Source: Nemertoderma westbladi
Taxonomy: Eukaryota; Animalia; Xenacoelomorpha
Length of the DNA: 40,253 nucleotides
NCBI GenBank assembly: GCA_032718475.1
Contig: JAUCBJ010001960.1
Coordinates: 1 to 40,253, forward strand
Direction: 5' to 3'
Both the position numbers and the translations under genes were made by a program. Positions 4,090 to 28,696 of the stretch are shown one piece after another (the first letter of the stretch is position 1; every line of letters starts with the position of its first letter). The notes under the pieces are model-generated. The model did not search any database. It was not told where the DNA came from and saw only the letters and a program-made list of their open reading frames with translations.

Positions 4090-4161
4090 TTCCCGACTGA
4101 GATTCGAACTCGTAACCTATCTGTAATGTAACCAACGCCTTAACCATCTGACCACTACGCC
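4090..4161 (-). pseudogene. tRNA-derived sequence (pseudo-tRNA or SINE head)
   Basis: Minus strand reads GGCGTAGTGGTCAGATGGTTAAGGCG...ACGAGTTCGAATCTCAG, with Pol III A-box-like TGGTCAGATGG and B-box GTTCGAATC at tRNA spacing. The acceptor stem does not pair. Confidence 0.65.
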
Positions 4162-4937: not shown

Positions 4938-7240
4938 CGGTAGGCTCGCAAGCCTTCCTTTCTTCATCTCGCGCTCCTATTCCTTGGCTGAACGGGCTTG
5001 TCCACGCCCTCTAATACGATTGGGTGGTGGTCGGGATCGAACTGGACTCGGACTTCGGTGTCGAGCTGTCGGTGGTTCTAAAACGCTAGGAAAGGGGACG
5101 ACGGGAGTTTCGCACATCCGTCGTGCACTCAGTCCTCTAAATCCTCGTCCAATTCCAATTGTTGGCTTAACATCGGATCGAGTCTCCACAACGCTGGGAG
5201 GAAGTCGAAAGGGTGGGACTGTTCCGTCCGCTGACACCTCGCTCTCTGACGTCGTCTGAATTCTAATGGGTTCCGGCAAAGCGTATCCTGTCCCTCCGCG
5301 TGGTTCTCTAGCGAGGGAAACCGTGCCCCGAGTCATCCGGATTTGCGACTTCGATGTCGTCCTCTCGGCGACATTTACTACCTTCTTAATCTCTTATCCG
5401 CCCTTCTGGGCTCTAAGTATACGAAGTTGCGAAATGAAATGAATGTTACAACTACAATGCACCCCAATGAAAACCCTCCATATTATTGCAAGGTGCACCC
5501 TGACCACCAATATCCAGGTGCACCCCAATATTAAGATAATACTTTCCTTGTTTTTTTCTAATAATAATATATTCTACATTTATGAAAACACCTGATAATA
5601 TATTTAATTAAACAGCAGACGATTATGTGATGAATATTATATTTGCTATTTATATACCATAACATGAAATATAAATGGGTACTTTTATATTCGGCTATAG
5701 CAATTGTAGTTTCACTAAAATCTGAAATTACATTATCATTTTAAAGTTTTTGCTTGAAACGGGTATCTGAATTAATGTGATAAAAATATAAATTATAAAT
5801 AATTATTAATATAAAGAGCTGCACTACAATAGAGCAAATAAAGATATCTTTATTTTCTACAGTTGGTCAATATAGGAAATAAATATAATATGTATCTAAT
5901 AACAAGATTTTCATTCATATTTAGTATCATAGGGCTATAATTAAGTTAAGGGCTATATTAATAAGAATGATTAGTTTTACTACAGTGTACTGATTTAGTT
6001 AAGATATCTTTGAAATATATTTTAATTATATATCACTGATTATTAATATAATACATGCAGCATGAGTATAATTTTAATTAATTTTAATGTTTATTACAAA
6101 AACATCAAAAATATTACCAGTACCACAGACCTGGTTATGTGAAAGCATACAGTGACATCCTGGTCACAATAATATTACTGCACTATATGAAAGTAGAATG
6201 CTCAGCAAAATTAGAAAATAAAAGGAAAGTTATAGTAATAAAAAACAATACTTTAATTACTATGCAATCTACATTACTTATTCTTTATTTTAATTATGAT
6301 GATATAGGATTTATACAGAACAATTTATTATAATAGTAATGTAATAAGTAAAATATATTTTCTATAATACGTATGTGATTTTTGACCTAACGCTAATTTT
6401 TGAACCAAATGTTGATTTTTTTGCCGTCAGTCCAATTGACTGACGACTCATTCAAGGTGAAAAAGTTGTCAGTCAAAATGACTGATGACTCGTTTAGGAT
6501 TGCAGAGTTCTTGTGAGGAATTGTACATACTGTGTACTATTGTAAACAACATTCAAGATGTTCATTGGAATTCTAAATATCTGTCGGCAGCAAGCTTTAT
6601 TAAAATGAGAGAAAGCTCTTCATATTTAAATATACCACTACGATGAATTTAACGTATATTTTTTTAATGCAAAATATTGTTTCATTGTTTGATTTTGTTT
6701 GTTTGTAAAGTAAAGTTATGCAGAGGAAATTTATAATTTTGGGTTTTCCAACTCTATGTTTTCCAAATCTTCTCTGGTCAGACCATGATAGCCGAAACAT
6801 CGGATTGGAAACATATTAACTTTCAGCCAATTTGGTCCAAGCCAATGCCTTCTAGTCACCCACTCTAATTACTTTTCAAATTGATCATCATTGGTAAAAA
6901 TGTGATTTGTTGCAAGTGTCTTGGTTCATGAGCAAGAAGATGGTTTTCGATTTCAAAAATATAGCTTCGACTTTCACTTGTTTCTCCGAAAAAAATGGGA
7001 CAAAAAGGACATTTTGCCCAAAATCAACGCACATTTAGGCTACTTTTATATTTGGACAGTTTTATTGGATTATCTAAAAATTCCAGAATATACTTCATTC
7101 ATTCATATGTTAAAGGTACATTGAGCACCACTTGCTACTACAGTTTGTTATACTTTCAATATTTTAAGTTCATTATAAACACCGTCTGCAATTCACTGAG
7201 AATTTGCTTGTCTACTCTGTTTGAGTATGATGATGATAAT

Positions 7241-7776
7241 ATGATCTCTCTAGATGAAATAATGTCACAAGAATATCCGTTTTATCTATTCACTGGACTG
7301 CCTACGTTTTCAAACTACCGAATTAAAAGACTGATTGGTATAGAAATGCGAAACATATTTAATAATGACGAGAACAACTATGATGTAAAACAGGTTGATT
7401 CAAGAACTGGCCATCCATACTTCTTGGTGAGGGAAGTTTACAAACTTCAAGAATCCCACCTTATTTATGCTGCCATTGCTGAAAACGTGGATGTCAGTGA
7501 TCTGGCCCTGTATGTATCCGGCTGTAAAGTCGCGTTCCTCCGATTACCAACAGGAATGGACATATTCGAATACTATCATACATGGCTTCTGCTGAGACGA
7601 AATAATGGCGGAGTACATATCATGGAAATGGCCAAGGAACCATGGGATGACATAGAAGGGAATGTTCTCGTCACCATAAACAATACTGAAGAAGTGCATA
7701 ACCGTAGACCTGGAACAATTGCTATGGATACAAGTTATATGAAACATACACAAGGCATCAACATGGCCAAAACTAT
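7241..7776 (+). pseudogene. 5' part of an H-box/NC (LRAT/PLAAT-like) protein gene interrupted by BEL element 1
   Basis: Part of ORF 6995-7834. It contains the H-box-like GCKVAFLR...YYHTWLLL...VHIME, and the frame continues exactly across the TSD at 19099. The start Met at 7241 is a guess. Confidence 0.6.
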
Positions 7777-8359
7777 TGTGAGCGGATTCAATTCCGCCCA
7801 CCACCCCATAAAGTTGGGAAGTGGCACCTTTTAGCAATATTGGGGATACGAGGTTAATCCCCAATTAACCTCGTATCACACACCCAGTAAATGGGGACAA
7901 CAAACCCCGAAGGGCCACACACAAAAGGAGGTCAGAGGTTAAACCTCTGGGAGGGGAAAGTAACAGCAGTGAGGGGGAAACACTCCCACAGAGTTGAGGG
8001 CGAGAATTAGGTTATTGGCCAATGAGAGCCAAGAAACGCATCCGCTAGGTACAATGGCCATAAGTAATGTAGCTAATCAATATATATATTACCGGTCAGT
8101 GCCCAACATTCAGTTATCTCAGTTGTTCAGGGCAGTAAGGTGACACTTTATACCGTCACCGCCATCACCAATTATTATTCTGTATTACTGATTTACCGAC
8201 ACTGTGCTATCTGTATTACATTATCATTGTATACTATATATTACCATCAAAGTTTATCAACAATATCGGAACAACAAACTCTTCCTTTTCCAATCACACG
8301 GTGCGGCCCTGACGCGTAAATAAACCAAAACTCGGTCGGGATCCTCTGATCCCGTCACA
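7777..8359 (+). repeat. 5' LTR of element 1 (583 bp)
   Basis: TG...CA ends, CCAAT ~8019, TATA-like run ~8080-8090, TCAGT Inr-like motifs ~8096-8124, AATAAA 8319-8324. Matches 18511-19098. Confidence 0.95.
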
Positions 8360-8423
8360 GTATAAAGTTACCCACTGACCCTAAAGAAACTGTGACTGCC
8401 AGCCACTATTCAGAAAGTCAAAG

Positions 8424-10099
8424 ATGAGCGAACACCGAGACTTAGAGGGAGAGACGACACCGCCGCGGACCCCAGACGATACGAACGAAACGATCCGCGA
8501 GGCCGCGACGCGACGGTATCGACCCGCAACACTGGACTCACCGGAGAGGAATGATCCGGTAGCCCAGGCGGAGGGCGGCCGTCTACCACAACGAGGGACG
8601 AGTGAGTGGAGAGAAGGGAGAGACGAGTCGACGCACGATGGCGCATGTCGCCGGCCAGCCACAGGCCGAGGGTGACGGACGGCCCACCGGAACGGCGATG
8701 GTGGGGCCGCTGGTACGATGCCGAACGCGGAGAGAAAGATGAGATGTCGGCGACGAGGACGCCGGGGTCAGCGACCGGCTCCGGCGGGCTTACAACGCCA
8801 CAAAGAAACAGCTGAGGGAAGCCAAGGAAGGAGCAAAGGTGGACCAGGTGAAACTAGAGAAGCGACTAGGTGAGTCGAACAAACATTTTAAATACCTAGT
8901 TCACTTCGGGCAGGGAGAACTAGCCAGTGAGAGAGCGAGGTGGGTCGCCACCGAACTATTTGAACTGTGGCGATCCGGGATTATGGAGCCCCAAATTGTG
9001 TACATAGGGCTGTATTTAGTGGATGCCAGGGGTATTAAGTTAGTGGGTTGGGCAGACCCACACGAGGGCGAATCCGAGATGAACCCTGAGGATTCGGTCT
9101 CGTCGGTTAGCGAAAATCCCAGAAAGCGGGGGAAAGTTAGCAGGACGGAGAGGCGACGGGAGTCCGTCGCGACCGTCAAGTTCGCTACATCCTCCACAAA
9201 GTAAGAAGGGTGTTAGAAATAGATCTGGCGTGCCAGTTGGATATGGTGGCGCTAGACCAAAAGGAGTTAGAGAGACAGTTGGAAGAGGGGAGTGCATTGT
9301 TGGAAAGAGAGAGGGATCTGGCGAGAGAGAATAGAGAGAGGGCCGAGAGGGTCGCGAGAAACTTCAGAGTGTATGAGGAGATATAAATGAGGGAAGGAAA
9401 GGAGTGGGAAGAGCGAGAGGCAAAAGAGATGAGTGAACGTAAAGATCGAGAGGCGAAAGAGGCGAGTGAACGTAAAGAGTGTGAGGCGAGAGGGGCGACC
9501 GAGCGAAAAGAGCGTGAGGCGAGACGACTTGAGAGGATTGCGAGAGAGGCGGAATTGGCCGAGCAGAGTCTGCGAGAAGATAGGGAGAGAGAGAGAACGG
9601 GAAAGCGTGTGCGAGATGATATGCATGCCCGGCTGAGGGGATGCAATATCAGGCCAAACAAAAGCGCCGACTGGAACTGGCGCAGTTGGGGCTGTCAGAA
9701 AGTGAGGCTGGCTCGGGTAGTATTTATGGGGAGCCAGAAGTTATGGAAACGTTTGTTAATACCCCACTTACAGGAACCGGACGACAGACCCAAGACTGGT
9801 GTAACCATATGGGCGGGGGGGGGGGGGGGGTGGTAATAATAATACGTTAGAGAACGTTAATATTAATAGTACCGTAGTGGATAACCCTAATCAAACTTTT
9901 ATTGCAGGAAATAATATTTTGCCCGATAATAGTCATTTAAATCCGAACGACCCTAATCTAAATGTAGAAAATAATTCAAATAACCCAGATTCGAATTTAC
10001 AAAATAATTCAAATAATTTAAATATGCAAAATAATCTAAATAATAATCTTAATTCAAACGAACACTCCAACCAAAATATATATTGGAAAACAATATTAA
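8424..10099 (+). pseudogene. gag: Gag N-terminal region of element 1 (frameshifted; E/R-rich coiled-coil, poly-Gly and Asn-rich parts)
   Basis: ORFs 8424, 8839, 9387, 9641 and 9877 are colinear with element 2 ORFs at 22263-23900. The region resumes after the piggyBac insertion at 12068-12355. Confidence 0.75.
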
Positions 10100-12063
10100 C
10101 CCTTTCCGGCCGACTGTATATTTTTGTATACACTGAATTTATTTCACTACGAATTGCATAATTTTAACTAATTATAGTTGGTTTCATCCAATTGAGGCAC
10201 TATCACACTTCCTTTACTTATAAATTACCGATTCTGATTGGATAATTGTAGTAGAAGGCTTCAATGAACGATTTTAGATGCCGTGTTTTCAGGTATTGAC
10301 ATGATGACTACCTGGCATAGGAAAGATGGTTATTTAAATGCTTTGGCAAAGCGATATTGAGAATTTTGATTGGGTATTCCAAAGATGGATTGTCCAATGA
10401 GATAATAATACTTCCAGGATAAACTTTACAGTACAGGTAGGCTGGTAGTGTTATTGATAAACCACTGTATACATTTGTCTACGTTAGGTTTATAAAGTTG
10501 GGGAGTAGAAGTGGTGCAGCCACAGTTGTGGAGTAGATGTGGTGCAGCACCGTTGGGGAGTAGATGTGATTCAGCCACCGTTTGTGTGATGTGGTGCTTC
10601 CACCATTGGGGTGTGTGTAGGCCTAGATGTGGTGCAGCCACCATGGGGAGTAGATGTTGACCATAGGATAGTAGAGGTGATGCAGCCACCATTGTGGATA
10701 GATGTGGTGCAGTCGCCATTGGAGAGTAGATGTGGAACAGCCTCCATTGGGGAGTAGATGTGGCGTAGCCACCATAGGGGTGTAGATGTTGACCATTGGG
10801 CCTTGGGAGTAGATGTGATGCAGCCACTATTGGGGAGTAGATGTGGTACATCCACCACCGTAGGGGTGTAGATATGGTGCAGCCACCATTGGAGAGTAAA
10901 TCTGGCGCACCCACCATTGGGGAGTAGATGTGGTGCAGCCACCATTGGGGAGTAAATCTGGCGCACCCATCATTTGGGAGTAGATGTGGTGCAGCCACCA
11001 TTGATGAGTAGATGTGGTGCAGCCACCATTGGGGAGTAGATGTGGTGCAGCCACCATTGATGAGTAGATGTGGTGCAGCCACCATTAGGGAGTAGATGCT
11101 GACCATTGATGAGTAGATGTGGTGCAGCCACCATAGTGGAGTAGATGTTAACCATTGGGCCTTGGTAGTAGATGTGATTCAGCCACCATTGGGGAGTAGA
11201 TGTGGTGCAGCCACCATTGATGAGTAGATGTGGTGCAGCCACCATTGGGGAGTAGATGCTGACCATTGATGAGTAGATGTGGTGCAGCCACCATAGTGGA
11301 GTAGATGCTGAGCATTGATGAGTCGATGTGGTGTAGCCACCATATGGAGTAAATGTTGACCATTGGGGAGTAGATGTGGTGTAGCCACCATATGGAGTAG
11401 ATGTTAACCATTGGGCCATGGGAGTAGATATGATTCAGCCACCATTGGGGATTAGATGTGGTGCAGCCACCGTTGGGGAGTAGATGTAGTACACCCACAG
11501 TAAACAGGCAGGGCAGATAGACATACAAACAGTTGAAAAAAGTTAGTCGAAACTGTTTTTTTCAAACTTGAACAAAACTGACAGAAAAAAACATTCACTG
11601 TATAATTCTTCATTTTAAGTTTTTTGTCGCACTGTGTTGCTTTTAAACAACGTGTGTTGTGAAAACACACAAAATTATAAAATTTTGGCATTTTGGCAAA
11701 TTTCAAAGTATTGACAGCTTTTCATTCCGAAAAAACATAATTTAAATTTTTTTCATTAAAATTGCCTGCTCGTTGCATGTTTTGTTTATTCTCTATATTA
11801 TATATATATATATAGAATATACTTACTATACGATGTATGTATGTAAGTAAGTACGTACAATCTAGAGTTCGTATACAAAAGTATACATTGGGAACATGTT
11901 TCATATACCTAACGTATACTTTTGTATACAATAAAAAAAACAACATTGGAAATAATTTTTTGAAAATTTTTTCATCGAAAATTATTATTTGGTGTATAAT
12001 TAACCCATTAACAAGACCAACCAATTTTTTTTCCTAAATTAAATTAATTCAGGCCGGAAAGGG
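10100..12063. mobile_element. Non-autonomous piggyBac-type DNA transposon nested in element 1 gag
   Basis: TTAA (10096-10099), then CCCTTTCCGGCC ... GGCCGGAAAGGG, then TTAA (12064-12067): a perfect 12-bp TIR with TTAA TSD. No transposase ORF, and the insertion is absent from element 2. Confidence 0.92.
10495..11495. repeat. 28-29 bp minisatellite (GAGTAGATGTGGTGCAGCCACCATTGGG/GAT) inside the piggyBac element
   Basis: Periodicity is visible directly and generates the repetitive minus-strand ORFs at 10426-11528. Confidence 0.93.
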
Positions 12064-12372
12064 TTAATGGTGCTATTAATGTAAACGCGGCTAATGTAGG
12101 TGGTCCGACCAGCGGGGGCCTGGTAGGCCACAGAGCTAGTGTGCAGGGAGTAGCGGGGGTGAGAGACCCCGAGCGGGGCCTGGTAGGCCACGTAGTTAGT
12201 ACGCAGGGAGTAGGGGGGTTGAGTCAACCCGACGCGAGCCTGCCAGGCAACGCAGTGATAGAGGGAGAGGCGGGGGTGAATAGACCCAGCCGTAGTGGAG
12301 TTAGTGCGTCGACTAGAGAGGGGTGTAGAAGTGAAGTAAGAGATAGTGAAGTGATCGAATTTAAATGGTTCT

Positions 12373-14164
12373 ACGGGTGGACGCTGAGCGGCCCAATCAG
12401 GAGTAAGATACCATTTAGGATGTCGGAGAGATCAGGATGCATGTTCGCGGGAACTATGCGAGAAATGGGAGATGAGGGAGCGGAGGAGCGGATGAAATGC
12501 GACGAGGGGCGGTATACCATAGGAATGGTATGGAAGCTACCGAAGCTACCGTTACCCGACAATAAAGGGATGGTACTCATGAGGCTTCGTAAGTTGAAGC
12601 AGATGCTAAAACGGAGCCCCGAGAAGAATGAGTACATTCACAAAACAATCAGAAAGTATGTCGAGAAAGGGGTTACCGGTCGACGAACTGAACACGGACA
12701 GGACCTAATACCTACCACTTCACGTGGCTCTAGATCCGAAGAAAGGTAAACTGCCGATGGTAGTTGACGCATCGGCTAAGACCAACGGCAAATGCCTAAA
12801 CGATTATCTGCTAGAGGGTCCCAATATCTACAACTCAGGGATCGAGGTCCTACTGAGATTCAGAAATGGGAGGCACGCCTTCACCTGTGACATTGAAGGC
12901 ATGTTCAATCAAGTCCGTGTGACGGAGGAGGATAGTGACAGCCAGCGCTTTCTATGGTACAACGGCGACGAGGAACCGTCGACAATACCGATGTACAAGA
13001 TGGTGGTGCAGAATATGGGGGCCAAGTCGTCCTCATTTACGACGACTGTGGCTGTGAGGGACACAGTAGAGGGGAAAGAAGAGAGATACAGTGCCAAAGC
13101 CGTCGATATGATTCGACGCGGCTTCTGTGTAGATGACGGGATGGAGTCTTGAAACACGGTTAATGAACTACTGGATACAGGGCGCGAGGTTCACGACATC
13201 CTGAAAGGATCCGGGTTTAACCTGACCAAGTTCCAGTCCAGCTCGGAAGAGTTTATGAGAGCCATAGAGGACAGGAGGCCAGAGTCGACCATGGATAATC
13301 CCACGACAGCCAAGGGACAGGACATGGCGAACAAGGACAGGACATGGCACAGGACATGGTTCCAGCAGAAGGCGTTAGGGATTGTGTGGAACCGAGAGAC
13401 AGACGAGTTCGAGTACCAGCTGAGCCAGGAGGGCGCGGACATCCACACAAAGAGGGGCTATGTATTGTACATAGCAAGGGGCGGAGAACGAGTTGGCAGA
13501 GGCCTTGGACATCCTGGAAGGGGAGGAAGTCAGGGCAGCCATGAGGAAATGACAGGTGAAGTGGGAGAGAAGGACGCCGTATGCTCCGCATTCTCTAGGA
13601 TGCGTCGAGAGACTCGTGGGTAGTTCCAAGCATCTGATGACGAAGTTGATGAACATCCACATGGTGACAGAAGATGTACTAAGGACGGTACTAGCTAAGT
13701 GTGAGGGTATCATTGATAGCAGACCGCTATACCCAGAAAATGATGACCCAGAATCATTAGATGTGCTGACACCCAGTCACTTTCTAATGGAGAGGCCAGC
13801 GACCATCGACATGCGGGGTGTAGACCCAGACGATATACACTCCCGACAAAGTTGGAAAGTCGCTAAGGCAATAAGCGCGGAATACTGGAGGAGGTGGGTC
13901 GAGGAATATCTACCCACACTTCATAGGAGGAGCAAGTGGAGAAATACCACTAGGAAGTTGAAGAAGGGTGATCTGGTGATCATCACGGACGATACCATCA
14001 TCAACAACCAATGGAGATTGGCAAGAGTAGTGGACACTTACTCCGACGAGGACAGAAGAGTCTGATCGGTAGAAGTGCAGATAGGTGGTAAGATAGGAGC
14101 GAAAGATAGGAAAACCTATAGGAGGGCTGTAGGAAAGTGCTGCCTACTAAAGGACGCACCGTAG
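12373..14164 (+). pseudogene. pol: BEL/Pao pol remnant of element 1 (RT, fragment after RT, integrase C-terminal half)
   Basis: Motifs seen: VVDASAK..CLNDYLLEGP, FTCDIEGMFNQV, FCVDD (degenerate YVDD), ALGIVWN, GCVERLV, IIDSRPL, LTPSHFL, YWRRWVEEYLPTLHRRSKW, WRLARVV. Several deletions, frameshifts and stops. Confidence 0.93.
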
Positions 14165-14339
14165 AGTTTAGTCGTCCAAGTGTTGGACTGAGGGGGGTGG
14201 GATTGAGGGCGAGACGCCCTTCCCACACACAAATATAAAAATATAAAAAAAAAAAATAATTAAAATAATAGAGAAAGAGAGGAAGAGAAAGGAAAGTAAT
14301 AGTACATAGTAGGTATGTAGTAAGTAAGTAGGCAGATAG

Positions 14340-14890
14340 AAGTTAGTAAGAGTTAGTATTAGCAGTAAGAGGGTATGTAGTACCGTTAGTTAGTTAGTTA
14401 GTTAGTAGTAAGAGGGTACGTAGTACCGTTAGTTAGTTAGTTAGTTAGTAGTAAGAGGGTACGTAGTACCGTTAGTTGGAGAGTTAGTTAGTAGTAAGAG
14501 GGTACGTAGTACCGTTAGTAGGAGAGTTAGTGGAGTTAGTTAGTTAGTAAGAGGGTACATAATACCGGTAGTAAGAGTTAGAGGAGTTAGTAAGAGGGTA
14601 CGTAGTACCGGTAGTAAGAGTTAGAGGAGTTAGTAAGAGGGTACGTAGTACCGGTAGTAAGAGTTAGTGGAGTTAGTAAGAGGGTACGTAGTACCGTTAG
14701 TAGTAAGAGTTAGTAGAGAAGTTAGTAAGAGGGTACGTAGTACCGTTAGTAGTAAGAGTTAGTAGAGAAGTTAGTAAGAGGGTACGTATAGTACCGTTAG
14801 TAGTAAGAGTTAGCGGTAGAAGGGTATATAGTATACAGTAAGAGTTAGTAAGAGTTGGTAGAAATTAGTCAGTAGAGTTAGTAGTGAGTA
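14340..14890 (+). repeat. Imperfect ~43-49 bp tandem array with core AGTAAGAGGGTACGTAGTACC between pol and ORF3
   Basis: About 11 copies of the core, separated by GTTA/TTAG repeats. Confidence 0.9.
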
Positions 14891-15279
14891 GCGAGAGGGG
14901 GGCATGTGGGTACAGCTGGACAGATCGTGTAGGCCACACGAGATATACTGCTGTACTGCACAAGCCCATAGAGTAGGCCAGAATATGGATTAGAATAGAA
15001 ATAATCAATTAGTAAACTCATAGCACAGTCATAGAATTAAAATAAATATTAGAAATTAGAAATTAGACAAATTATGGTAACAGTAAGAAAAATATTCCAG
15101 AACATAATTAAAGGTAAATAAACGGACAGAATTACGAATAGGAAAATTAGGCAATAAACTAACATTCAGCAAGAGATAGGGCATTATCGGACTGCATAAA
15201 CCATCCTAACTTCATCACTCATCTGTATTGCACCTTAGCAAGGCACCACCTTATAGGTGAGCGATTGGGAGAGTTCGAA

Positions 15280-17884
15280 ATGGCGGAGAAACTTGTTCGA
15301 AAGAGAAAGGCGGAGTTGGGAGGAAAGGAGATACTGGTGGATTTCACCGAGAGGCATCCGGAAGAGAAGACGAGGGGATACTACGAGCGGTTAGAGAGGG
15401 GTCATAAAGCGCGAGCGCTGCAGGACCATTTCAGGGAGGTGCACGAACAGCGGCTGGTCGGGACCTACGGGACACCGTTGCTAGACAACGCAATCTTCGA
15501 GCATTTCCACTATGTGGTGAAGGGAGACGAGGCGAAGTTCGGGATACCGAAGTATCCAAAGGAACAACTGAGAAAGGACTGGAAGAGGTTCGTAGAGTCC
15601 GTCAGCAGGGGAGGATACATGGTCCTAGACGATGAGGGGACCATGGAGGACGAGGAAGGTTCGAGGAGAGGCTTGGCGGGGTCGGCCAGAACCATACTCC
15701 TGCATTTGGCCGCGCCAAATGGGGACATTTTCCTATTCGACCTGGGAACGTATGGGAAGGAGAACGGGCCGAAGTTGAACCGGTTGCCAAAGGCGGTACA
15801 AACCCTAGTAAGAGAGAAGTCAACGATAAAGGTGGGATTGGCGATCCGCGACGATGCGGAGAGAATCATCGGTCCGGACACCCCCAACCTCCTGGACATG
15901 CAGACGGTCTACATGGCTATGACAGCGCCAGACGGGTTGGGACTAGTAGAGAACGCAGGCCATTCTGGAACGGTGGTGATGGGCCAGCTAATGGGGCTCG
16001 TATGTCACAAACCAATGGACTGGAGTAGATTCAGAGAGGAGTATGGAGCGGAATTGGCAAACTCGCTGAAGTGGGGAGCGAGACCGGGGAAACAAGAGGT
16101 GTATCAATTCCGGAGATGAGCGATAAAGGTATATCAGAAGCGATATATCCTGCAGGAGGACTTGATAATGATAGGTTTGCTAAACCTATTCATGACCGTG
16201 GTTATCGAGAGAGAACCAACGGCATTCCTGTTATCGGGATCACCCCTGAACTACAGAAGAGCCTTCAAAACGGCTTTCGAGGGTCTGGTAGACCACCCGG
16301 GGCTGAAGGGCGAGTCGGTATATTATAACTGCCGATATCTAGTAGACGGGGAGGTGGATACGCCATATCAGAGGTGGGAGCAGCTAGAGGCGGATAGACG
16401 AGAGGCGAAGCGATTGGAAGAAATCGCTAGGCGAGACAGGAGGGAGGCAGAAGAAAGGGAGGAGGAAGCAAGAAGAGAGAGCTATGGATTTGAGGAACAG
16501 GCGGCCTTAGACGAGCTACACTGGACATCAGGGAGTTCGGGCGAGTCTCTAGGGCGAGAATTGGGGTGGACGGTGGGATCACCGAAACAGTCGACATCGG
16601 GAATGCAGGCGACGCCCATACCAGCGGGCGCCGAGGGCGATTTCACGCGGAGGTGGCCAGGGGAATTGGAAGGATGGAGAGTCACTGGCGAGAGCCAAGG
16701 TAGGAAGGGTCACAGTGGATCCACCGGGATACCGGGATTGGAGCCACTCACAGAGGAGGACGAGGATGACGACGAGTTCGGAGAGATGCCACCCATTGGG
16801 AGAATCGGCCACTCGGACATGGACTGGGTTGGCGGGAGGGTGGTGATGGCCAGCGGGGCGAGGGCCTTCTGGGATTGACCCGGCAAGCGGGCCTGGGTGC
16901 ATGAGGAGCCGGCGATGGATTTCGCGGGGAGCACCATCAGGTTGGGCAAGCAACCGGGGACGGCACCACGGGTAGTATTCGGAGAGACGATGCCTGGGCG
17001 GGGCGAGGAGATATACGTGGACAGGGACGCTAACGTCCAGAAGTTCGCTTACCAGCGACTCCACAGACCGAGGAGATCGCTTGGGACGAAAGACAACATG
17101 GGGCGGGAGGCATTGGTACTCGGCTGCGATTACTGCGGGAGGCAAACTCACCAGGAAAGGAGCTGCTTGTACCGATTCCAGAAAGGGACTAGTTGTCTCT
17201 ACTGCCGCGAGTTGAGCCACAGGATGGGGGCGTGTCCACGGTTGCACAACCGGTGTTCTAAGTGCAACTTCCGGGGGCACTACGGACGCCAGTGCGACTG
17301 GATGGACGACGAGGAGAAGTTTAGGATTTTCGAGGAGTGGGCCAATGTCGGCGCCATGACCCGACAGCGGATGAAGGCCCAGGAATTCCGGTGGGGCTTC
17401 TTTAATATCAACCAGGAGGCCCACCTGGAGATCATTAAACGGAGACTTCCGTTTACCTATCAGGAGGTGTCATCCGCGGCGTCGTATGCCGGAGTGATAA
17501 ATACGAAGAGGTATTTGGACAGGTGGACACCACAGAACCGAGGAGAGTTCAGAGATTTTCTTGGCGGAGCATGTGCCGCGGGCAATGAAAGTGATCCTAT
17601 GGGACGCCACTAGGGGGAAACAACAGGGCCATTCGGAGGGGCCACCCGCGAAGCGATACCGGGAGCTGATAACACCAGCGCCCAAGGAGTCGACGACGGG
17701 AATCAGTAGAGAGGTGACGGCAAGGGTCAGGAGTCTGAAAGGAGATAAGACCAAGGGAGCGGCAGCGGCCAGGAAACGACCGAGGGAGGAGGACGACAGA
17801 GGGAAGGAGTTGAGATGGTTCCCAAAGTCGGGTGGAACGAACTATAACTTGGGTGTGGAGATGCCTGGAAGGCGCCACATGTGA
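15280..17884 (+). pseudogene. ORF3 of element 1: DEDDy-type 3'-5' exonuclease, acidic/charged linker and three CCHC zinc knuckles (~870 codons reconstructed)
   Basis: ORFs 15265, 16162 and 16897 share one frame, broken only by TGA at 16117 and 16876. A +1 T at ~17557 relative to element 2 joins ORF 17561. Exonuclease motifs: VLDDEG, LLHLA..IFLFDL, LP..VQTLV..STIKVGLAIRDDAERI, LLDMQ, QKRYILQED. Knuckles: CDYCGRQTHQERSC, CLYCRELSHRMGAC, CSKCNFRGHYGRQC. Confidence 0.8.
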
Positions 17885-18472
17885 AGTAATACGAACTCCT
17901 AAGTGCAAATTTAATTAAAAGTGCAATTAGTATGTACGTATGTAGTAATCATTAGTTTAGTCAAATAGAAAATACAATCAAAGTAAGTACTATAGTCATA
18001 TAACCTTTTCCAATTAGCTACTGGAACTGGGGACCAATTGACTATGACAGGACGGGGCATTGGACGACTTCACACTTCTTGAGTGCGACGGCACAGGAGG
18101 GGAGGGTGAGGCTCGTCAGGAGTGAGTGGGTTAGTTAGAGGTTGAGTATAGAACGTGTGGAGGGAAGGCGAGTGCAATTCAAGTGTGGGGGGGGGAGGAG
18201 TAAGAGAGTTAGAGTGGAGGAAAGTTAGAGTCAGTTAGAGCGGAGTTAGAGTGGAGAGAGTAGTGAGGAAGCAAAATTGTGTGAGAAATCCACAATCGTC
18301 CCGACACGGGACGCCAGATGTCTTGGTGCAAGGTAGACGAAGTTGCACCAAGAGAGGGTAGCAATATCATACCCATAGGGAGCGGCCTGGAAAGCCAGCT
18401 TCGAGAAAAGAACTCCACCTCACACCCGATAGTACATCGGGATCCAGCGGAATTGAAGCGCACTTGTTGGTG

Positions 18473-18510
18473 ATGCTATCTTCTCACCGGGAAGATAGCA
18501 TGGGGGGGAG
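18473..18510 (+). promoter_or_regulatory. 11-bp-stem hairpin followed by the polypurine tract of element 1
   Basis: ATGCTATCTTC-TCACCGG-GAAGATAGCAT, then GGGGGGGAG abutting the 3' LTR. The same arrangement occurs at 29352-29389. Confidence 0.88.
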
Positions 18511-19098
18511 TGTGAGCGGATTCAATTCCGCCCACCACCCCATAAAGTTGGGAAGTGGCACCTTTTAGCAATATTGGGGATACGAGGTTAATCCCCAATT
18601 AACCTTGTATCACACACCCAGTAAACGGGGACAACAAACCCCGAAGGGCCACACACAAAGGGAGGTCAGAGGTTAAACCTCTGGGAGGGGAAAGTAACAG
18701 CAGTGGGGGGGGGGGGGGACACTCCCACAGAGTTGAGGGCGAGAATTAGGTTATTGGCCAATGAGAGCCAAGAAACGCATCCGCTAGGTACAATGGCCAT
18801 AAGTAATGTAGCTAATCAATATATATATTACCGGTCAGTGCCCAACATTCAGTTATCTCAGTTGATCAGGGCAGTAAGGTGACACTTTATACCGTCACTG
18901 CCGTCACCAATTATTATTCTGTATTACTGATTTACCGACACTGTGCTATCTGTATTACATTATCATTGTATACTATATATTACCATCAAAGTTTATCAAC
19001 AATATCGGAACAACAAACCCTTCCTTTTCCAATCACACGGTGTGGCCCTGACGCGTAAATAAACCAAAACTCGGTCGGGATCCTCTGATCCCGTCACA
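18511..19098 (+). repeat. 3' LTR of element 1 (588 bp)
   Basis: Differs from the 5' LTR by about 8 substitutions (counted by eye) and an expanded G run. Confidence 0.95.
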
Positions 19099-19218
19099 AC
19101 TATTTATCGATATTCTAGAATTATGGGAGTCAGCATTGAGTATCATCCCGTCCAACTCAATTGCGACCACCTAGCAACATATCTAGCAACAGAAACGCCG
19201 AATAATAACGCCAAGTGA
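19099..19218 (+). pseudogene. 3' part of the H-box/NC (LRAT-like) gene
   Basis: The in-frame continuation is TIYRYSRIMGVSIEYHPVQLNCDHLATYLATETPNNNAK*. It resembles the LRAT-family Y.L...NCEHFA motif. Confidence 0.65.
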
Positions 19219-20080
19219 TGGTACATTCAAAATCGTTGCCACCAGCTATCTCTCAGAACGTCCTTCAAGAATTGGTGTCAAGACTAACCTTGCTGGTTCG
19301 TGTGCAGAGTGGGAACTGGCTGGTGCGCTGGCGGTGATTGAAGCACATGGTCGGCTCACTATCGAGCATTTCAGTGCATTCTCTGTAACATCACAGAATT
19401 TCGAGGATAGTTCGGATGCCACATCAGATAAGAACAGGATGGTACGTATTTTGTCTACCGCATTCGCCACAATGATTAATGATAAGGATTTCCAGAACTG
19501 GCTGGAATGTCTGTAAAAGAATACAAGTCTCCAAATGCCATCCCCTCAGAAACATTACTTTGAGATAACTAGAGTATATGCTGTAGTTCTGGTTGTTATG
19601 TTAGCATGGCAACCAAGGCCAAACTCAGTTATATAGTAAATAGGCTGAATATCTCAACCTTGAGACAAGGGGAGCTGGAGCAAGATACCTGGATTATTAT
19701 TCAATACAATTGATTTCATTCATTCATGTGTGTTTAATCAGTTTAACCAATTAGATTGAGATGCCGGACTACCTGTCAATCCCATATGTCACAAATCTCT
19801 CAATGCACAACGTGCATGTAGCAGGACCCCCAGTTGGCCCTACCGAACGTTGTTGGTACCTTTATCGGCCGTCATAAAATTATATCGAATTAAAATACCA
19901 AAAGTATGCCATACCCATGCACCGAAAACCTGAACAAAGTCGGAAGTGAGGCATTAGAAAGTGCTAAAGGAGTCAATGGTATGCAGCAGATGTGTGAAAA
20001 TTGTAATGGTATCACCAAGCCATGCAAGACACACAACACAAAGACGCCTTTAAAGTAATAATAAAAATAAAGCACACCCG

Positions 20081-20260
20081 AGGAAACAAGTGAGGCAGAT
20101 CTACGATGAGAGGAATAGTTGCGATCAATGTAATAAATACGAAGATCGGTTTAGCGAAAAGCTATTTGAGTACCTTTGGAGGAGGCAGGTGAAGAGGAGC
20201 AATGGAAATGGATTCATGAAAATAGTAGTAGCGATAAAAGAATGTTTCCCAATCGAATAA
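20081..20260 (+). pseudogene. Probable C-terminal fragment of a Merlin/IS1595-like transposase
   Basis: Translation ...FSEKLFEYLWRRQVKRSNGNGFMKIVVAIKECFPIE* resembles the Merlin C-terminal E(F/Y).WRR...F..l...I...(Y/F)P pattern. The catalytic core was not recognised. Confidence 0.45.
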
Positions 20261-20394
20261 AATACAAACTATTTATTAACTTTACTTTAACAGTTCGTTA
20301 CAACGTAACATATCTTTAATGTGTGTATTAATGTGTATGTAAATATGTATAGCATTAAACTTGGCTATTGTCGGACTCTGCCTTTATTAAACAT

Positions 20395-21128
20395 GTAGCC
20401 ACTGGCGGAAAAATTACAACAAAATGTAGCCACGGGTGGAACTATAAGAACAAAAGTAGCCACGGGTGGAACTATAAGAACAAAATCTATCCACAGGCGG
20501 AACTATAAGAACAAAATGTAGCCACGGGCGGAACTATAAGAACAAAATGTAGCCACGGGCGGAACTATAAGAACAAAATGTAGCCATGGGCGGAACTATA
20601 AGAACAAAATCTATCCATGGGCGGAACTATAAGAACAAAACGTAGCCACGGGCGGACATATAAGAACAAAATGAACCCACGGGCGGAACTATAAGAACAA
20701 AATCTATCCACGGGCGTAACTATAAGAACAAAATGTAGCCATGGGCGGAACTATAAGAACAAAATGTAGCCACGGGCGGAACTATAAGAACAAAATGTAG
20801 CCATGGGCGGAACTATAAGAACAAAATCTAGCCACGGGTGGAACTATAAGAACAAAATGTAGCAACGGGTGGAACTATAAGAACAAAATCTAGCCACGGG
20901 CGGAACTATAAGAACAAAATCTACCCACGGGCGGAACTATAAGAACAAAATCTAGCCACGGGCGGAGCTATAAGAACAAAATGTAGCCACGGGCTGAACT
21001 ATAAGAACAAAATGTAGCCATGGGCGGAACTATAAGAACAAAATCTAGCCACGGGCGGAACTATAAGAACAAAATCTAGCCACGGGCGGAACTATAAGAA
21101 CAAAATGTAGCCACGGGCGAAACTTTCC
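20395..21128. repeat. 31-bp tandem array (GTAGCCACGGGCGGAACTATAAGAACAAAAT), ~23 copies, probably a transposon terminal array
   Basis: Periodicity is visible directly (20518, 20549). It ends sharply at ...GAAACTTTCC, downstream of the transposase-like fragment. Confidence 0.92.
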
Positions 21129-21558
21129 TATTGCTATTACGGCTAAGGCTATTACTTTGCGGAATTTTGCAATTAGTAATTTTTAAATTATGTATGGGAG
21201 GATGATATCAATAGATGAATTTGGATATGGACTGGATATGGTTATTCCTCTAAAGGTTAAGGGGGGGGGGGGGGGGGGGGTAGTCGGATTTGGCAACCTT
21301 TTGGTAATGTTTAAAATACACCATAGTATATCATTGGATACTAGGACATATATATATATTCTGAAAGGTAATTGGACGGGCTTTCCATTTCTGTGGTCAC
21401 ACATCTAAAATACTCGCTTCTGATTGGCTAATAGCCAATTAAACGAAATTTTGATTGGTCCGTTCTTAAAATGTATCTCCTCCTACAATTTTGAGTATTT
21501 TGGTCTGAAAATTGGTGAGTATGTGCACTGACTATCCCTTTACAGAATCCTTAGAGGA

Positions 21559-22126
21559 CTTTAGTGTATTCAATTCCGCTAACCAGGCCCACACAAAGTT
21601 GGTTTTAAGCAATATTGGGAGCACGAGGTTGATTACCAATCGACCTCGTGTCACCCCAATAAGCGGGGACAACAGGCCCCAAGGGAACACACACAGCGGG
21701 GGTCAGAGGTTACACCTCCGGGAGGGAGAGAGAGACGGCAGCGGGGGGGAAGCACTCCCAGGGAGATGGGAGGGTGAGAAGTGAGTTATTAGCCAATGGG
21801 GGGAAGGCATCGGCTGATTAGTGTAATGCGGCCAACCGGTGCAATATATTACCAGTATCCGTGTTATTCATTCACTCATTAGCTAGTCAGTTCAGTTAGG
21901 GTAGGACGGCAACTTTATTACCGTTCAGCCGTTTATTCATTCACGTTGTCAGTATACTGCAATTACCAACTGCATTCACTATAACTGTGCTTATACTTTA
22001 TACCATTTATATTATATACATATCGAACGATTAACAACAGGAACTCTAATAAACTCTTTTCACACGGCGGGACGCGTAAATAAATCTAACCGGATAAACC
22101 GGGATCCTCTGTCTGATCCCATCACA
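21559..22126 (+). repeat. 5' LTR of element 2 (starts CT instead of TG)
   Basis: Aligns without gaps to 29390-29957, with about 12 differences by eye. Confidence 0.93.
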
Positions 22127-22262
22127 GTAATAAAGTCCAGCTGCCCGAAACTGAACCACAGTAATAAACTCTAGCTGCCCCAACAGTAATAAAGACACCG
22201 AACGTAAAGCGCTGAGTCGAACAGGAGAGACGACACCGCCGCGGACCCCGGATGGCGACCTA

Positions 22263-25200
22263 ATGATCTGCGAGGCCGCGACGCGACGGTACAGACCCAC
22301 GATGCCGGACCCATCGATAACGGGCGATCCGGCAACCAAAGATGAGGGGGGCCGTCTACAACCAGAAGACGAGTCGAGAGGAGGGAGAGATGAGTTGGGA
22401 GAGGAGAGAGATGAGTCGACACACAGCGGCGGTCGACGTGCTGATGTCGCCGGCCAGCCACAGGCCGAGGGCGACGGACGGCCCACTGGAACGGCGACGG
22501 TGGGGCCGCCGATACGACGCCGGACCCGGAGGGATAAAGGAGATGTCGGCGACGAGGACGTCGGGGTCAGCGACCAGCTCCGACGAGCCTACGCCGCGAC
22601 CCAGAAGCAGTTGAGAGAGGCCAAAGGAGGGGCGAAGATAGACGAGGTGAAGTTGAGGAAACGATTAGGCGAGTCGAACAGACACTTTGATTACTTAATG
22701 CGTTTTGGACAGGGAGAACTAGCTGACGAGAGAGCGAGAGGGGTTGCCAGCGAACTGTTCGAACTATGGGAGTATAGGGGTATGGAACCTAGCGTAGTGT
22801 ATGTAGGGCCATACTTAGTCGATGCATGGGGAGTAAAATTGGTGGTTTGGAGGAGACCGCAGGAGAGCGAATCCGAGGTTAACCCCGAGGATTCGGTCTT
22901 GTCGGTAGGGGAAAATCCAGGGAGGCGGGGTAAAGTTAGTGGGACGGGAAGGCGACGGGAGTCCGTCGCGACCGATAAGTCTGCTACATCCTCCGCAAAA
23001 GAAAGAGAAAAAGTGCGGGAAATAGATCTGGCATGCTAGCTCAATCTGGCGGCGCTAGACCAGAGAGAACTAGAGAGACAGTTAGAGGAAGGGAGTGCGT
23101 TATTAGAGAAGGAGAAAGAACTGGTTAGAGTGAACAGAGAGAGGGCCGAGAAGGCCGCGAGAAGCTTTAAGGAGTGCGAGGAAATAGGGAGGATAGAAAG
23201 GAAGGAGCAAGAAGAGCGCGAGGCGAGAGAGCAGAATAGGCGTGAAGAGCGTGAGGCGAGAGACCAGAGCGAGCGAAAAGAGCGTGAGGCGAGAGAACAG
23301 AGCGAGCGAAAAGAGCGCGAGGTGAGACGACTGGAGAGAGTTGCGAGAGGTGGAATTAGCCGACCAGAGTGCGCGGGAGGATCGGGAAAGAGAGGCAAAG
23401 GGGAAGCATGTGCGGGATGATTTGCATGCCCGCCTAAAGGGGCTTATTCAATATCAAGCCAAACAGAAACGCAGACTGGAATTAGCGCAGATGGGATTGT
23501 CAGAGAGCGAGACTGGCTCGAGTATTTACGAGGAGCCAAGGGCTGTGGAAACGTTTATTGGTACCCCACTTACAGGGACCACACGACAGACCCAAGACTG
23601 GTGTGACCGTACGGGCGGGGGGGGGGGGGGGGGGGGGTAATAATACAGTAGATAACGTTAATATTAATAGTACCGTATTGGATAATTCTAACCAAACTTT
23701 CATTGCAGGAAATATTTTACCTAGTAGTAGTAATTTAAATTTACGAGTAATTACGAGTACGAATACGAGTAATTCGAATAATAATGCCAATTTAAATAAT
23801 CCGAATAATCCTAATTCAAATAATTAAAATATGAATCTGCAAAATAATTCAAATAATCTTATTTCGGACGAACAAAATAATTCCGTTTCTAATTTAGGCG
23901 TGCAAAATAATTTAATTGATTTGGAGGATTTAATTGATTTAACGGGCGATACTAGTAATGGTGCTATTAATATAAACGCGGCGGGCACAGACAGCCCGAC
24001 AAACGAGGGCCTGGTAGGCCACATAGTTGGTAGGCAGGAAATGACGGGGTTGAGTCAACCCGATGAGGGCCTGGTAGGCCACGTAGTCAGTAGGCAGGAG
24101 GTGGCGCGGTTAAGTCAATCCAATGAGGGCCTGGTAGGCCACGTAGTTAGTAGGCAGGAAGTAGAGGGCCTGGTAGGCCACACAGTAGCAGAGAGAGGGG
24201 CGGGGGTGAATAGACCCAGCCGCAGTAGGGTTAGTGTGTCGACTAGAGAGGGGTGTAGTAGTGAAGTGAGAGATAGTGAAGTAATAGGTGGCGAGCGAGG
24301 GGGGGCTGTAGGAGCCCCACAACGAGAGATTAGCGGCGAGCGGGGGGGGGGGGGGGGGGCAAAGAGTGTCGCACAAGTGTCAGCGGATAATGCGCGGGGC
24401 GAATTAGGTGAACCGCAGCACCCGGCGACGGAGAGTAATAGGGGGATTACGAGTATCCCCAGCGGCGTGCGATCGAGCAGAGAGAAGCAGATTGACGTCG
24501 CGAGAGGGCGAGCGACGAGGCGTCGAGCCCAATCAGAAGAGGGAAGAAGAACAGTGGAGTTTAACCGGGAGGTCGACGAGAGATCTCACGACCGGGGATA
24601 CTGCACTACAGAGAGAAGAAAGGAAGAGGGTAGAAGAAGTGTCGCCGCGAACGACAGAAGGGCGAGGACGGATAGCGAGCCGTCGGTAGTAGAGATGGAG
24701 ACGGAGAGTCAGTGGGGTCGAACTTCGGGAGATTGCCGTCGCCCCGGAGGAACGCGACCTGACGAGGCGTATTGAGCGCAGAGAGAGGGGTACAGGATGT
24801 ACTGGCACGAGGACGAGAGCAGTAGAGGGGGTCGAAGAGAAACTTCCCGACGGGATATACCTACCGATCGAGAATACGGTAGCCGCGGGGAGGATTATTC
24901 GAGAAGGATAAACTTTGATCCCGAGCGACACATACAGACTGCAGGACATACTATAGGCCTTACTGCACATACCATAGGCCATGCTGGGAGAGATAATGTA
25001 GGCGATAGGATAGCGCGAACGACGGGATTAAACCCGGAAGTCGCGGAGTACATACCAGCAGGTAGGCCAGAAGTGGATAGGCCTATACAGGTACCAGCAC
25101 AGAATGCAAGGACATAACATATACCCAGGGGAGGGGAGACTTATTGCGGATAGGTGTATGGGCCCCAATATATTAACATCAACCCCAGTACCAAACATAC

Positions 25201-25785
25201 CGGTGGGGGGGGGGGGGGGACAGGGTGACATTCCCCCATCACAATATCAACAATATACCCCAATAGGAGTAACAACATCGAACCCCTTGGATGAGAATAG
25301 ATCGTGCGACACAGAAATATGGACCCCCTATATATATATATATAATACCCCCTATGATATATCCAAGTCAGAGGAAAGCGACAGACAGGACGAACGGACC
25401 ACACCCAACGGGAGAACCTATACAGCATCCATCGAACCCATTGGAAGCGCAAGCGATGGGGATGGCCACGTTAATCGATGCATTAAAGACAGGGATTGAG
25501 TTACCACCCGTGGAACCATTCAAATTCGATGGAAGTAGGCCGGAAGAATACCTACAGTTTCGGCGTATGTATAGTAATGAAATATTAACAAAGAATTTGA
25601 CGCAGGCGGAGTGCCTAAAGTATCTACAAGTGTATACAGGAGGCCCAGCATACGACATCGTGAGGCAATACCAGAGCATTGAGGGCGGCTTCACGACGGC
25701 ATGGTGGGCGTTAGACAGGGAATACGGGCACCCGGCCAAGATCATCCAGCAGACCCTGAGAGGTATAACATCGGGTGGCCTATAG
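22263..25785 (+). pseudogene. gag: Gag of element 2 (frameshifted), including the BEL gag core
   Basis: Colinear with element 1 gag. ORF 25291 has PFKFDG...YLQF...LKYLQVYTGGPAYDIV...AWWALDREYGHP, typical of BEL/Pao gag (DUF1759-like), and is in frame with ORF 25831 across one TAG. Confidence 0.85.
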
Positions 25786-25830
25786 GATAACCCCGTTAGC
25801 ATAAAGACATTCGCTAACAAAGTCGAGAAG

Positions 25831-27770
25831 GTGCTAATCGTACTAAAGACGCTGGACGCGCCATACGAACTCAACGCGTCTAACAACATCGCTACGATAG
25901 CGCAGGCACTACCGATTTGGCTGCGCAATAAGTGGAGAAAAATCGCTTTCACCACTCGAGATAGGAAGGGTGAGGAACCGGGTTTAGAAGAGATGTCGAG
26001 CTTCTTAAACTATGAAGCTGAACTTATAACGGACCCAGTCTATAGCGAGGATAGCCTGGGAAAGGGACCAAAGACCGATTACCACAGGCCGAAACCAGAG
26101 CACAACGCGTCAAACGCATTGCCAAAGCTCAGACAGTCACTGCCGTATGCAGCAACGCAGGGGACTACCAGTCCACAAGTAGCCGCGGGTAAGACCACAT
26201 CATGGAGCGGACAGGGGAAAAATAACAACACAAATAAACATAACCCCAGCACGCCCAGTAGGCCAAACCCAAACAATAAGAATAGTAGGGACTTTGGTAC
26301 AAATATAAGTGCGGTATGCAACGTACTTTATAAGGATGGCTACACCCCAAAGAGCAAATGCCAACTACATACAAATGCACTTCATCAGACCATGAACTGC
26401 AGGTATTGGCAAGCGCTACCCAGGGAAGATCAGGTAGAATACGCGAGAAGAAATGAAATCTGCTCGCGATGTGTGATGAGTGGACATAGAGCTAACCAAT
26501 GCAAAGAAACGCCAATTAAGTTCAGTCAGAGTAAAGGACAGACAATGACAACGAGCACCGTAGTGGCAAGGAAGAGAGGAACGGTACTATTAGGAGTAGT
26601 ACCAGTAAGGATAATCGGGGAAGGCAATCGATCAGTAACCACACTGATGCTGGTCGACAGTGGTGCAGCCTTCACCTTAGTTGAGGATTGGGTGGCCGAA
26701 GAGATAGGATTGAGAACGAGGCCAAGTAGAATGGCGGTAACAACCATCTCCAGCAAAGATGAGGTTCTGGAGATGAGGACCGGACGGTGCGCGATAGCAG
26801 CGATAGCACCGGGATGCGACTATGGGGCGACCATCGACCCCATCCAGGTGATAGAGTCGATAAATATCAACGCCAGGCGGCCAACCAACATCGAAGTCGA
26901 ACAATACAGATTCCTGGACAGTATCGATTTCTCAATCCCAGAGGTGGATGTTAGGAAGGTATCCATCATAGTAGGAATGGACTGCCCGACGGCCCACGAG
27001 AGAATGCAAACAGTCTTCGGCGAAGACAGGCAGTGTGACCCGGTGGTGATATTAACACCATTCGGATGGACGCTGAGCGGCCCAATCAGGAGTAAGATAC
27101 CATTTAGGATGTCGGAGAGATCAGGATGCATGTTCGCGGGAACTATGCGAGAAATGGGAGATGAGGGAGCGGAGGAGCAGCTCAGGAGACTGCTCAGGCA
27201 GGATTTTGAGGGATTAAAGGAGACCGGGGTCGGAACCTCGGTGGAAGTTAAACAGGCTCTACAGAGTGTAAGGGAGTCGATGAAATGCGACGAGGGGTGG
27301 TATACCATAGGAATGGTATGGAAGCTACCGAAGCTACCGTTACCCGACAATAAAGGGATGGTACTCATGAGGCTTCGTAAGTTGAAGCAGACGCTAAAAC
27401 GGAGCCCCGAGAAGAATGAGTACATTCACAAAACAATCAGAAAGTATGTCGAGAAAGGATGGGCCGTGGAGTTACCGGTCAATGAACCAAGCACGGACAG
27501 GACCTATTACCTGCCACTCCACGTGGCTCTAGACCCGAAGAAAGGTAAACTCCGGATGGTAGTTGACGCATCGGCCAAGACCAACGGAAAATGCCTAAAC
27601 GATTATCTGCTGGAGGGTCCCAACATCTACAACTCAGGGATCGACGTCCTACTCAGATTCAGGAATGGTAAACACGCTTTCACCTGCGACATCGAAGGCA
27701 TGTTCAACCAAGTCCGTGTAACAAAATGGATAGTGACAGCCAGCGCTTCCTATGGTATGACGGCGATGAG
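25831..27770 (+). pseudogene. pol: Gag C-terminus, aspartic protease and N-terminal RT of element 2
   Basis: Knuckles CQLH...H....C and CSRCVMSGHRANQC; protease LVDSGA; TPFGWTLSG; YYLPLH, KLRMVVDASAK, LNDYLLEGP, CDIEGMFNQV. Homology to element 1 stops at ~27770. Confidence 0.93.
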
Positions 27771-28308
27771 GATCAGGATTAGGATTAGGCGATTAGGATT
27801 GCATCGTAAATTTAATGCGCAAAATGTGAGGAAGAAAAATATTATACTAGGTTAAATAATTAAATTATTACGCGCCAGATATGAGCAGTATAAACGATGG
27901 ACCAATATTGCAAAGGTACTGTATTAGTATTAGTATTTGTAAGCATATGAACGTGATTTATATCCAAGTATCTAGTGTGTAATTAGATAAATAAAAGTTG
28001 TAGCACATGTAGTGCGGAAATTTTAACTTAGTACGCAATATGACGTATGTAACAAAGCAAAAACAAAATATAAAGAGAAAAATGTCAATACAGTAGTAAA
28101 AGTTGTTACTGTATGTAATAACACCGTAATGTTAAACCTGTCCGAACCATTGTTTAGAGGGTCGGGTGGTAAACGTTAAGAGGGGGGTTATGTTTGTGGA
28201 TTAGTAATGCTTCCGCAGCTAAAACGCCAAACATTTATACTGCTGTGGAATATCCAATTTCCGTGTCTGCATTTACCGCCAGTTCAATAAAACCATACAA
28301 CTTTTAGC
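27771..28308. other. Foreign AT-rich segment replacing the centre of element 2
   Basis: No similarity to element 1 seen. It begins with AGGAT(C/T) repeats, has AATAAA near its end, and joins RT directly to the ORF3 tail. Confidence 0.7.
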
Positions 28309-28696
28309 CTACCAGGAAGTGGCGACGGCGGCATTGTATGCCGGAGTGATAAATACGCAGAGGTTTTTGGACAGGTGGACGCCACAGAACAGAGGAGAGT
28401 TCAGGGATTTCTTGGCGGAGCATGTGCCGCGGGTGATGAAAGTGATCCTATGGGACGCCACCAGGGGGAGACAACAGGGCCACTCGGAGGGGCCACCCGC
28501 GAAGCGATACTGGGAGCTAATAACACCAGCGCCCAAGGAGTCGACGACCGGGATTAGTAAAGAGGTGACAGCGAGGGTCAGGAGCCTGAAATCAGACAAG
28601 ACCAAAGGAGCGGCAGTGACCAGGAAACGACCCAGGGAGGAGGACGATAGAGGGAAAGAGTTGAGGTGGTTCCCAAAGGCAGGTGGAACGATCTAA
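28309..28696 (+). pseudogene. C-terminal remnant of ORF3 in element 2
   Basis: Clear homology to 17457-17840 (LDRWTPQNRGEFRDFLAEHVPR...ELRWFPK). Confidence 0.9.

Follow-up and report, generated by a model that had tools for sequence, protein, structure and literature searches.

Candidate self-priming sites in two BEL/Pao retrotransposons of Nemertoderma westbladi and splice-junction counterparts in distant relatives

Results

Two decayed BEL/Pao elements in the window

Self-comparison of the window, i.e., the whole analyzed stretch of 40,253 nucleotides from Nemertoderma westbladi (contig JAUCBJ010001960.1), reveals two related long terminal repeat (LTR) elements together with a truncated third LTR. 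Element 1 spans positions 7777–19098 of the plus strand, on which the parts of both elements lie, and is flanked by the target-site duplication ACTAT, with the 5′ copy at 7772–7776 and the second immediately after the 3′ LTR. Its 5′ LTR (7777–8359) has TG...CA ends, a polypurine tract is located at 18502–18510, and the 3′ LTR occupies 18511–19098; the two LTRs differ by 11 substitutions over 583 columns. Element 2 (21559–29957) has the target-site duplication GAGGA, and its 5′ LTR (21559–22126), where the terminal TG is lost, and 3′ LTR (29390–29957, followed by GAGGA) differ by 10 substitutions over 566 columns. Compared between the two elements, the LTRs are ~73% alike in U3 and agree in 191 of 323 columns in R-U5. 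The third LTR (38213–38586) belongs to the same family, but is cut before the R arm and hence uninformative on the pairing described below; it is followed by an ORF (38953–39882) with a weak endonuclease match (PF03372, E 0.03), likely a LINE.

Both elements are decayed. A broken pol remnant in element 1 (12709–14162) encodes reverse transcriptase (RT) and the integrase C-terminus with DUF5641, while most of gag-protease is missing, with other DNA in its place; element 2 retains gag (DUF1759), protease and the start of RT (25273–27726), the remaining pol being absent. The order PR-RT-RH-IN is obtained by piecing together the two broken copies. The LTRs, polypurine tract and target duplications, the DUF1759, aspartic protease and DUF5641 domains detected in the window, and the RT homologues, 13 of 14 of which contain PF05380, all agree with the BEL/Pao assignment made in an earlier, sequence-only reading of this DNA, and by domains and RT homology both elements are BEL/Pao. 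The closest RTs found share 32–41% identity with the window RT, which forms a long branch; quick trees, built with no named clade references, give no supported placement among the junction-bearing families described below.

Downstream of pol, element 1 contains an extra ORF (15280–17613) with a DEDDy-like 3′-5′ exonuclease region, three CCHC knuckles and two in-frame stops, the last part of which recurs at ~28303–28560. The ORF has 74 relatives, many of them 600–900 aa long; PF01612 is matched by 4 of 28 aligned members of this family, and the DxE and Y..D motifs align. The window protein itself gave no Pfam match, and a single-sequence fold of its exonuclease-like region was unusable (pLDDT 38). 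The ORF could act on RNA ends; this analysis provides no link to priming. The bdelloid LTR retrotransposons Juno and Vesta likewise have an ORF3 after pol with DEDDy-like motifs, according to the available part of PMC5408684; the window ORF differs in residing in a BEL/Pao element and in being fused to three CCHC knuckles, and is set beside the rotifer ORFs by description only.

Element 1 is inserted in an intronless ORF without Pfam match (6965–7776 and 19099–19516), whose open frames resume past the 3′ LTR. Tandem arrays are present within element 1, with a 43-bp repeat between pol and the extra ORF (14316–14830) and a 28-bp repeat at 10473–11500, and outside the elements, where two different 31-bp arrays occupy 20390–21120 and 1–420. 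A minus-strand segment at 4090–4160 appears tRNA-like by eye and has adjoining promoter-like motifs, possibly representing the head of a SINE; ARAGORN and Rfam returned no match for this segment, and no tRNA gene was found within the window.

The post-LTR site is complementary to the predicted R region of the same element

As pointed out in the sequence-only reading, TGG is missing after both 5′ LTRs, none being present in the first 21 bases, and neither element has the host-tRNA-type primer-binding site that belongs to the description of the BEL/Pao family. The elements thus depart from that description in the primer site, yet their membership stands, because protein homology places them there.

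The same reading proposed that the site pairs with the R region of its own element, and its four exact pairings were all reproduced at their stated coordinates. The primer-binding-site position of element 1 (8360–8399) begins with an exact core of 9 nt (8360–8368) that is the reverse complement of 8145–8153, followed by a bulged extension to 8399. At the corresponding position of element 2 (22127–22194), a core of 10 nt (22127–22136) is the exact reverse complement of 21912–21921, with an extension to 22162. Distal pairing of 8120–8124 with 8388–8392, and of 21890–21897 with 22149–22156, is likewise exact, the core directly abuts the end of the LTR in both elements, and the same 1-nt indel is found in both arms when the elements are compared. 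The full duplexes are longer than first described, i.e., 8111–8153 with 8360–8399 in element 1 (−32.5 kcal/mol) and 21882–21921 with 22127–22162 in element 2 (−33.4 kcal/mol), giving a predicted length of ~40 nt, and a C·A mismatch directly follows the core in both. Element 2 has two extra partial copies of the site, at 22161 (8 nt exact) and 22186 (9 nt exact); the site start occurs three times in 22127–22194, each time preceded by ACA, which may stem from misaligned plus-strand transfer.

When the LTR was dinucleotide-shuffled 20,000 times, a flush exact 9-mer or 10-mer arose in 64 and 26 cases, respectively, and among 500 shuffles, 3 and 1 had an equally low duplex energy, giving rates of 0.1–0.6% overall; since the two elements share ancestry, these are not independent tests. 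Cross duplexes between element 1 and element 2 reach −25 and −27, compared with −32 and −33 for each element with itself, and are thus weaker, but still stable. The comparison within this genome comprises two copies with both arms, differing by one indel in the core, and this we count against the reading. When every GT/GC-AG pair was tried, no splice junction gave a match of at least 9 nt in element 1 or 2.

Predicted start site and leader fold

Element 1 has a TATA-like box at 8081–8091 and the initiator-like motif TCAGTT at 8110–8115; the predicted +1 is A8112, 29–31 nt past the TATA-like box, and the far end of the duplex (8111) adjoins this start site. In element 2, the TATA-like box lies at 21845–21851 and candidate start sites are found near 21870–21874, 8–12 nt ahead of the duplex. 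The upstream arm had been placed 30–40 nt after the TATA-like box, and this holds for the full duplex, which begins at 30 nt in element 1 and 37 nt in element 2, whereas the shorter element 2 arm given at the time begins at 45 nt. The predicted self-primer of element 1 is 8111–8153, with the exact core at 8145–8153 and the predicted 3′ end at C8153; the predicted arm of element 2 is 21882–21921, with the exact core at 21912–21921. An AATAAA at 8319–8324 (22079–22084 in element 2), to judge by its sequence a likely poly(A) signal, lies ~160 nt past the arm, which places the arm in the predicted R region.

When folded from the predicted start, the leaders of both elements show three parts in common, namely the primer helix, another helix beyond it and a hairpin at the U5 end. 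The predicted second helix begins right after the core and joins 8154–8158 with 8310–8314 in element 1 and 21922–21926 with 22070–22074 in element 2; between the elements, one of its pairs has changed at both positions and another at a single position. The hairpin GGGATC...GATCCC is located just ahead of the LTR end, at 8337–8354 in element 1 and 22101–22120 in element 2. The folds have z-scores of −3.2 and −2.5, and the core is paired in the minimum free energy (MFE) and centroid structures of both elements, with pair probabilities of 0.37–0.80 in one and 0.83–0.98 in the other. An Rfam search with the leader returned nothing meaningful.

Copies in host DNA runs

Contigs from host DNA runs contain many diverged copies with the U5-end hairpin in common, as the summed contig depth is 6,600–13,800 at 8334–8357 vs ~130–2,600 over 8094–8333 (runs X1–X3); R arms of other subfamilies may not align to element 1. 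Five joint rows comprise host contigs that retain the LTR end and GT or GTA, and then diverge. Core variants occur at 8363 (4–25% of depth) and 8367 (5–44% of depth), and no compensating row at 8150 or 8146 is present among the 40 rows listed, which on its face counts against self-priming; as the contigs lack phase and no single one covers the two arms, the variants do not constitute a test of covariation in either direction. A segment of the leader and gag start, 8454–8525, is also common to many diverged copies, with a summed contig depth of 11,000–28,000 (X1–X3).

Predicted primers across splice junctions in distant relatives

An RT alignment search of metagenome contigs yielded 478 relatives, of which 79 loci were retained, representing 43 families at 88% identity; the same search of viral contigs found no relative, and the LTR-end DNA pattern gave 0 matches in the metagenome contigs. 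The testable set comprises the 62 loci (33 families) with at least 2.3 kb upstream of RT, 17 loci being excluded. Sites were scanned for post-LTR bases starting 0–6 nt after CA, a GT start, an AC primer end and a match of at least 11 nt, a rule that was set after the first cases had been seen and under which shuffles were scored identically.

At 32 of the 62 loci, in 18 of the 33 families, a GT-starting post-LTR site matches 11–15 nt of the element's own LTR, and does so only with a GT-AG intron removed in silico. With shuffled targets, 0–1 of 62 loci matched in each of 20 rounds. In all 16 tabulated families, the own-family match is 11–15 nt when spliced vs 5–9 nt when unspliced, and among non-cognate pairs 12 of 306 reach 11 nt, all within four families having one common core (the L064 row of this cross matrix combines its two LTRs). 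A swap control was confounded by core-sharing families (163 of 3,676 pairs), and the cross matrix and shuffles were used instead. Across families there are ~14 different cores, each fitting its own LTR and starting 0–6 nt past the LTR end. The tabulated LTR introns are of GT-AG type and 66–404 nt long; LTR introns with an exon junction complementary to the post-LTR site are found in L001, L004, L009, L018, L023, L028, L034, L041, L043, L045, L047, L051, L057, L060, L067, L074, L078 and others, and junctions were found by hand in three further families, L013 (10 nt), L064 and L046/L068. In the relatives, the predicted primer ends with AC and C is usually the next base; the AC end is also found in both window elements.

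Contiguous arms as in the window elements are present in L033 (12 nt) and L032 (11 nt). The upstream flank in L033 is nearly identical to the end of exon 1 that precedes the donor in L068; both exon ends (L068 9570–9953) are found in one piece in L033 (485–512), as precise intron loss predicts. TGG/tRNA-type sites occur in two families, L015/L017 and L036, which show no self-match (best exact 6–7 nt). Furthermore, L039 has a site and no LTR, L027 carries an intron with a non-matching junction, and 7 of the 33 families were assigned to no class.

Discussion

The primer of the window elements is very probably derived from the elements themselves, by whatever route, and in cis self-priming, which we consider likely, minus-strand synthesis would be primed by a 5′ piece of the elements' own transcript and not by a host tRNA. 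Priming by the element's own RNA was the central proposal of the sequence-only reading; covariation in 18 of 33 families, the family-specific sites, the common AC end and GT start, and the position of the predicted element 1 start at the end of the duplex argue in its favor. The requirement for splicing to produce the match in most relatives is a point absent from that account.

In the proposed mechanism, transcription would start near 8112 in element 1 and near 21870–21874 in element 2, and the first 40–50 nt of the transcript would fold back onto the post-LTR site, with the second helix and the U5-end hairpin alongside. A cut after ...UAC at the C·A mismatch, i.e., between 8153 and 8154 or between 21921 and 21922, would free a 3′-OH; most likely, as in Tf1, the RNase H of the element would make this cut. 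The strong-stop DNA, reaching from there to the end of the LTR, would be ~205 nt long. Once it has been transferred to the 3′ R, the arm would be resupplied by the 3′ LTR, and plus-strand synthesis, in copying the attached primer, would rewrite the site after the R-arm sequence in every cycle. Such rewriting would explain the joint change of both arms, as well as an exact core with drifting distal pairing. In the relatives, splicing of the LTR intron would form an equivalent AC-ended primer. The Tf1 primer is ~11 nt long, and its 3′ end is freed by RNase H. The predicted window primer differs from that of Tf1 in measuring ~40–50 nt, the exact core forming its 3′-terminal part; this length is likewise absent from the sequence-only account.

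On a wider scale, we lean toward the view that a widespread BEL/Pao lineage swapped tRNA priming for an AC-ended self-primer, that LTR-intron splicing builds this primer in most families while others pair the first 40–50 nt whole, and that intron loss can turn one form into the other. The boldest addition to this scheme, that the DEDDy-like ORF trims the primer end, appears improbable.

It is unlikely that the primer is element RNA that acts in trans or acquires its 3′ end differently, e.g., a short transcript of another LTR or the other RNA in the particle, whose end might be produced by a host nuclease, by early termination or by the DEDDy-like ORF as a trimming enzyme. Complementarity alone cannot separate cis from trans, the fold is unlike the Tf1 pretzel, element 1 does contain an exonuclease-like ORF, and the persistence of introns in the LTRs of the relatives would be easier to understand if primer and template RNAs differ; however, folding predicts the cis structure as the minimum for both elements, and in rotifer elements ORFs of this kind are reported as extras of particular families in the available part of PMC5408684. 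There is little probability that the duplex is a leader structure for regulation or packaging and that a host RNA, i.e., a tRNA half or small RNA, serves as the true primer there or nearby. Although host tRNA is the primer that ICTV gives for Belpaoviridae (PMC8742986), and tRNA halves prime some copia lineages according to the accessible portion of PMC6317226, the ~14 different cores, each matching its own LTR, cannot all fit one host RNA, and the relatives with a TGG-type site show no self-match. Lastly, a chance match or the functionless product of a single DNA template switch is very unlikely in the window, where the exact core is short (9–10 nt) and the two elements have common ancestry, but shuffle rates are low and both arms are altered together, and this explanation is already largely refuted for the relatives, whose match exists only across a splice junction and is impossible to make at the DNA level.

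If self-priming is confirmed, a known mechanism would operate in a superfamily for which we found no report of it. The literature search, which had subscription journals, Repbase, GyDB, the full ICTV report and supplements outside its scope, found no paper on self-priming in BEL/Pao, and by term search priming is not discussed in the available parts of three BEL/Pao surveys (PMC3118150, PMC554778 and PMC6238403). Proof of self-priming is so far confined to the Tf1/sushi gypsy group, while for a few lineages of plants it is a prediction; within its accessible portion, PMC6317226 gives it for Tf1/sushi, Tcn1 and TAR copia only. Self-primed elements would then also exist in the third LTR superfamily, where the architecture of the RNA is different, and priming in many families would depend on host splicing. 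This would bear on which mode of priming, hairpin or tRNA, is the older one among LTR elements, a question raised in the available part of PMC3601003, might bear on escape from tRNA-fragment silencing, and would matter for annotation tools that demand a tRNA site. The reading offers single-base predictions, at 8153 and 21921.

With tRNA-primed BEL/Pao (Belpaoviridae, Semotivirus) the window elements share TG...CA LTRs, a 5-bp target duplication, a polypurine tract, a DUF1759 gag, the protease-RT-integrase order and DUF5641. They differ, as do most of the relatives fetched, in the missing tRNA site, which in Belpaoviridae is an 18-nt sequence complementary to the 3′ end of host tRNA-Arg or tRNA-Gly (ICTV, PMC8742986). 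The TAR/Houba/Osr-1 copia and Tcn1 gypsy elements of plants resemble them in having a complement of at least 10 nt located 0–5 nt after the LTR, a rule that element 2 passes and of which element 1, with 9 nt exact, falls short; these lineages belong to other superfamilies and hosts, and no splice-junction primer is mentioned for them in the part of PMC6317226 that was available.

The closest parallel in mechanism, as far as the available parts of PMC10085805 and PMC4600332 describe it, is found in Tf1/Tf2 of Schizosaccharomyces pombe, Tj1 and the Tf1/sushi chromoviruses, which have no tRNA site, carry directly after the 5′ LTR a complement of the 5′ part of their own mRNA, and fold a multi-helix leader. 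A U5 hairpin near the site is also reported for this group. The window elements show the same complementarity, given the predicted mRNA start. The Tf1 pretzel, described in the available part of PMC10085805 as three duplexes in which both sequences adjacent to the site pair with the LTR downstream of the primer, is a different arrangement: in the modeled window leaders, the 3′ flank of the site pairs with the 5′ part of the primer, and the bases following the primer pair with a U5 segment ~45 nt before the site. Self-priming in Tf1 is established experimentally, whereas here it is read from sequence alone, and most BEL relatives, unlike Tf1, require splicing for the match. Moreover, Tf1/sushi elements are Ty3/gypsy chromoviruses and the window elements BEL/Pao; no chromodomain match was found in the integrase C-terminal ORF of the window, and by their sequence affinities the window elements are not members of the Tf1/sushi group. 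The best reading of these comparisons is Tf1-like self-priming by an AC-ended 5′ RNA fragment, of which the window family would represent the intronless form.
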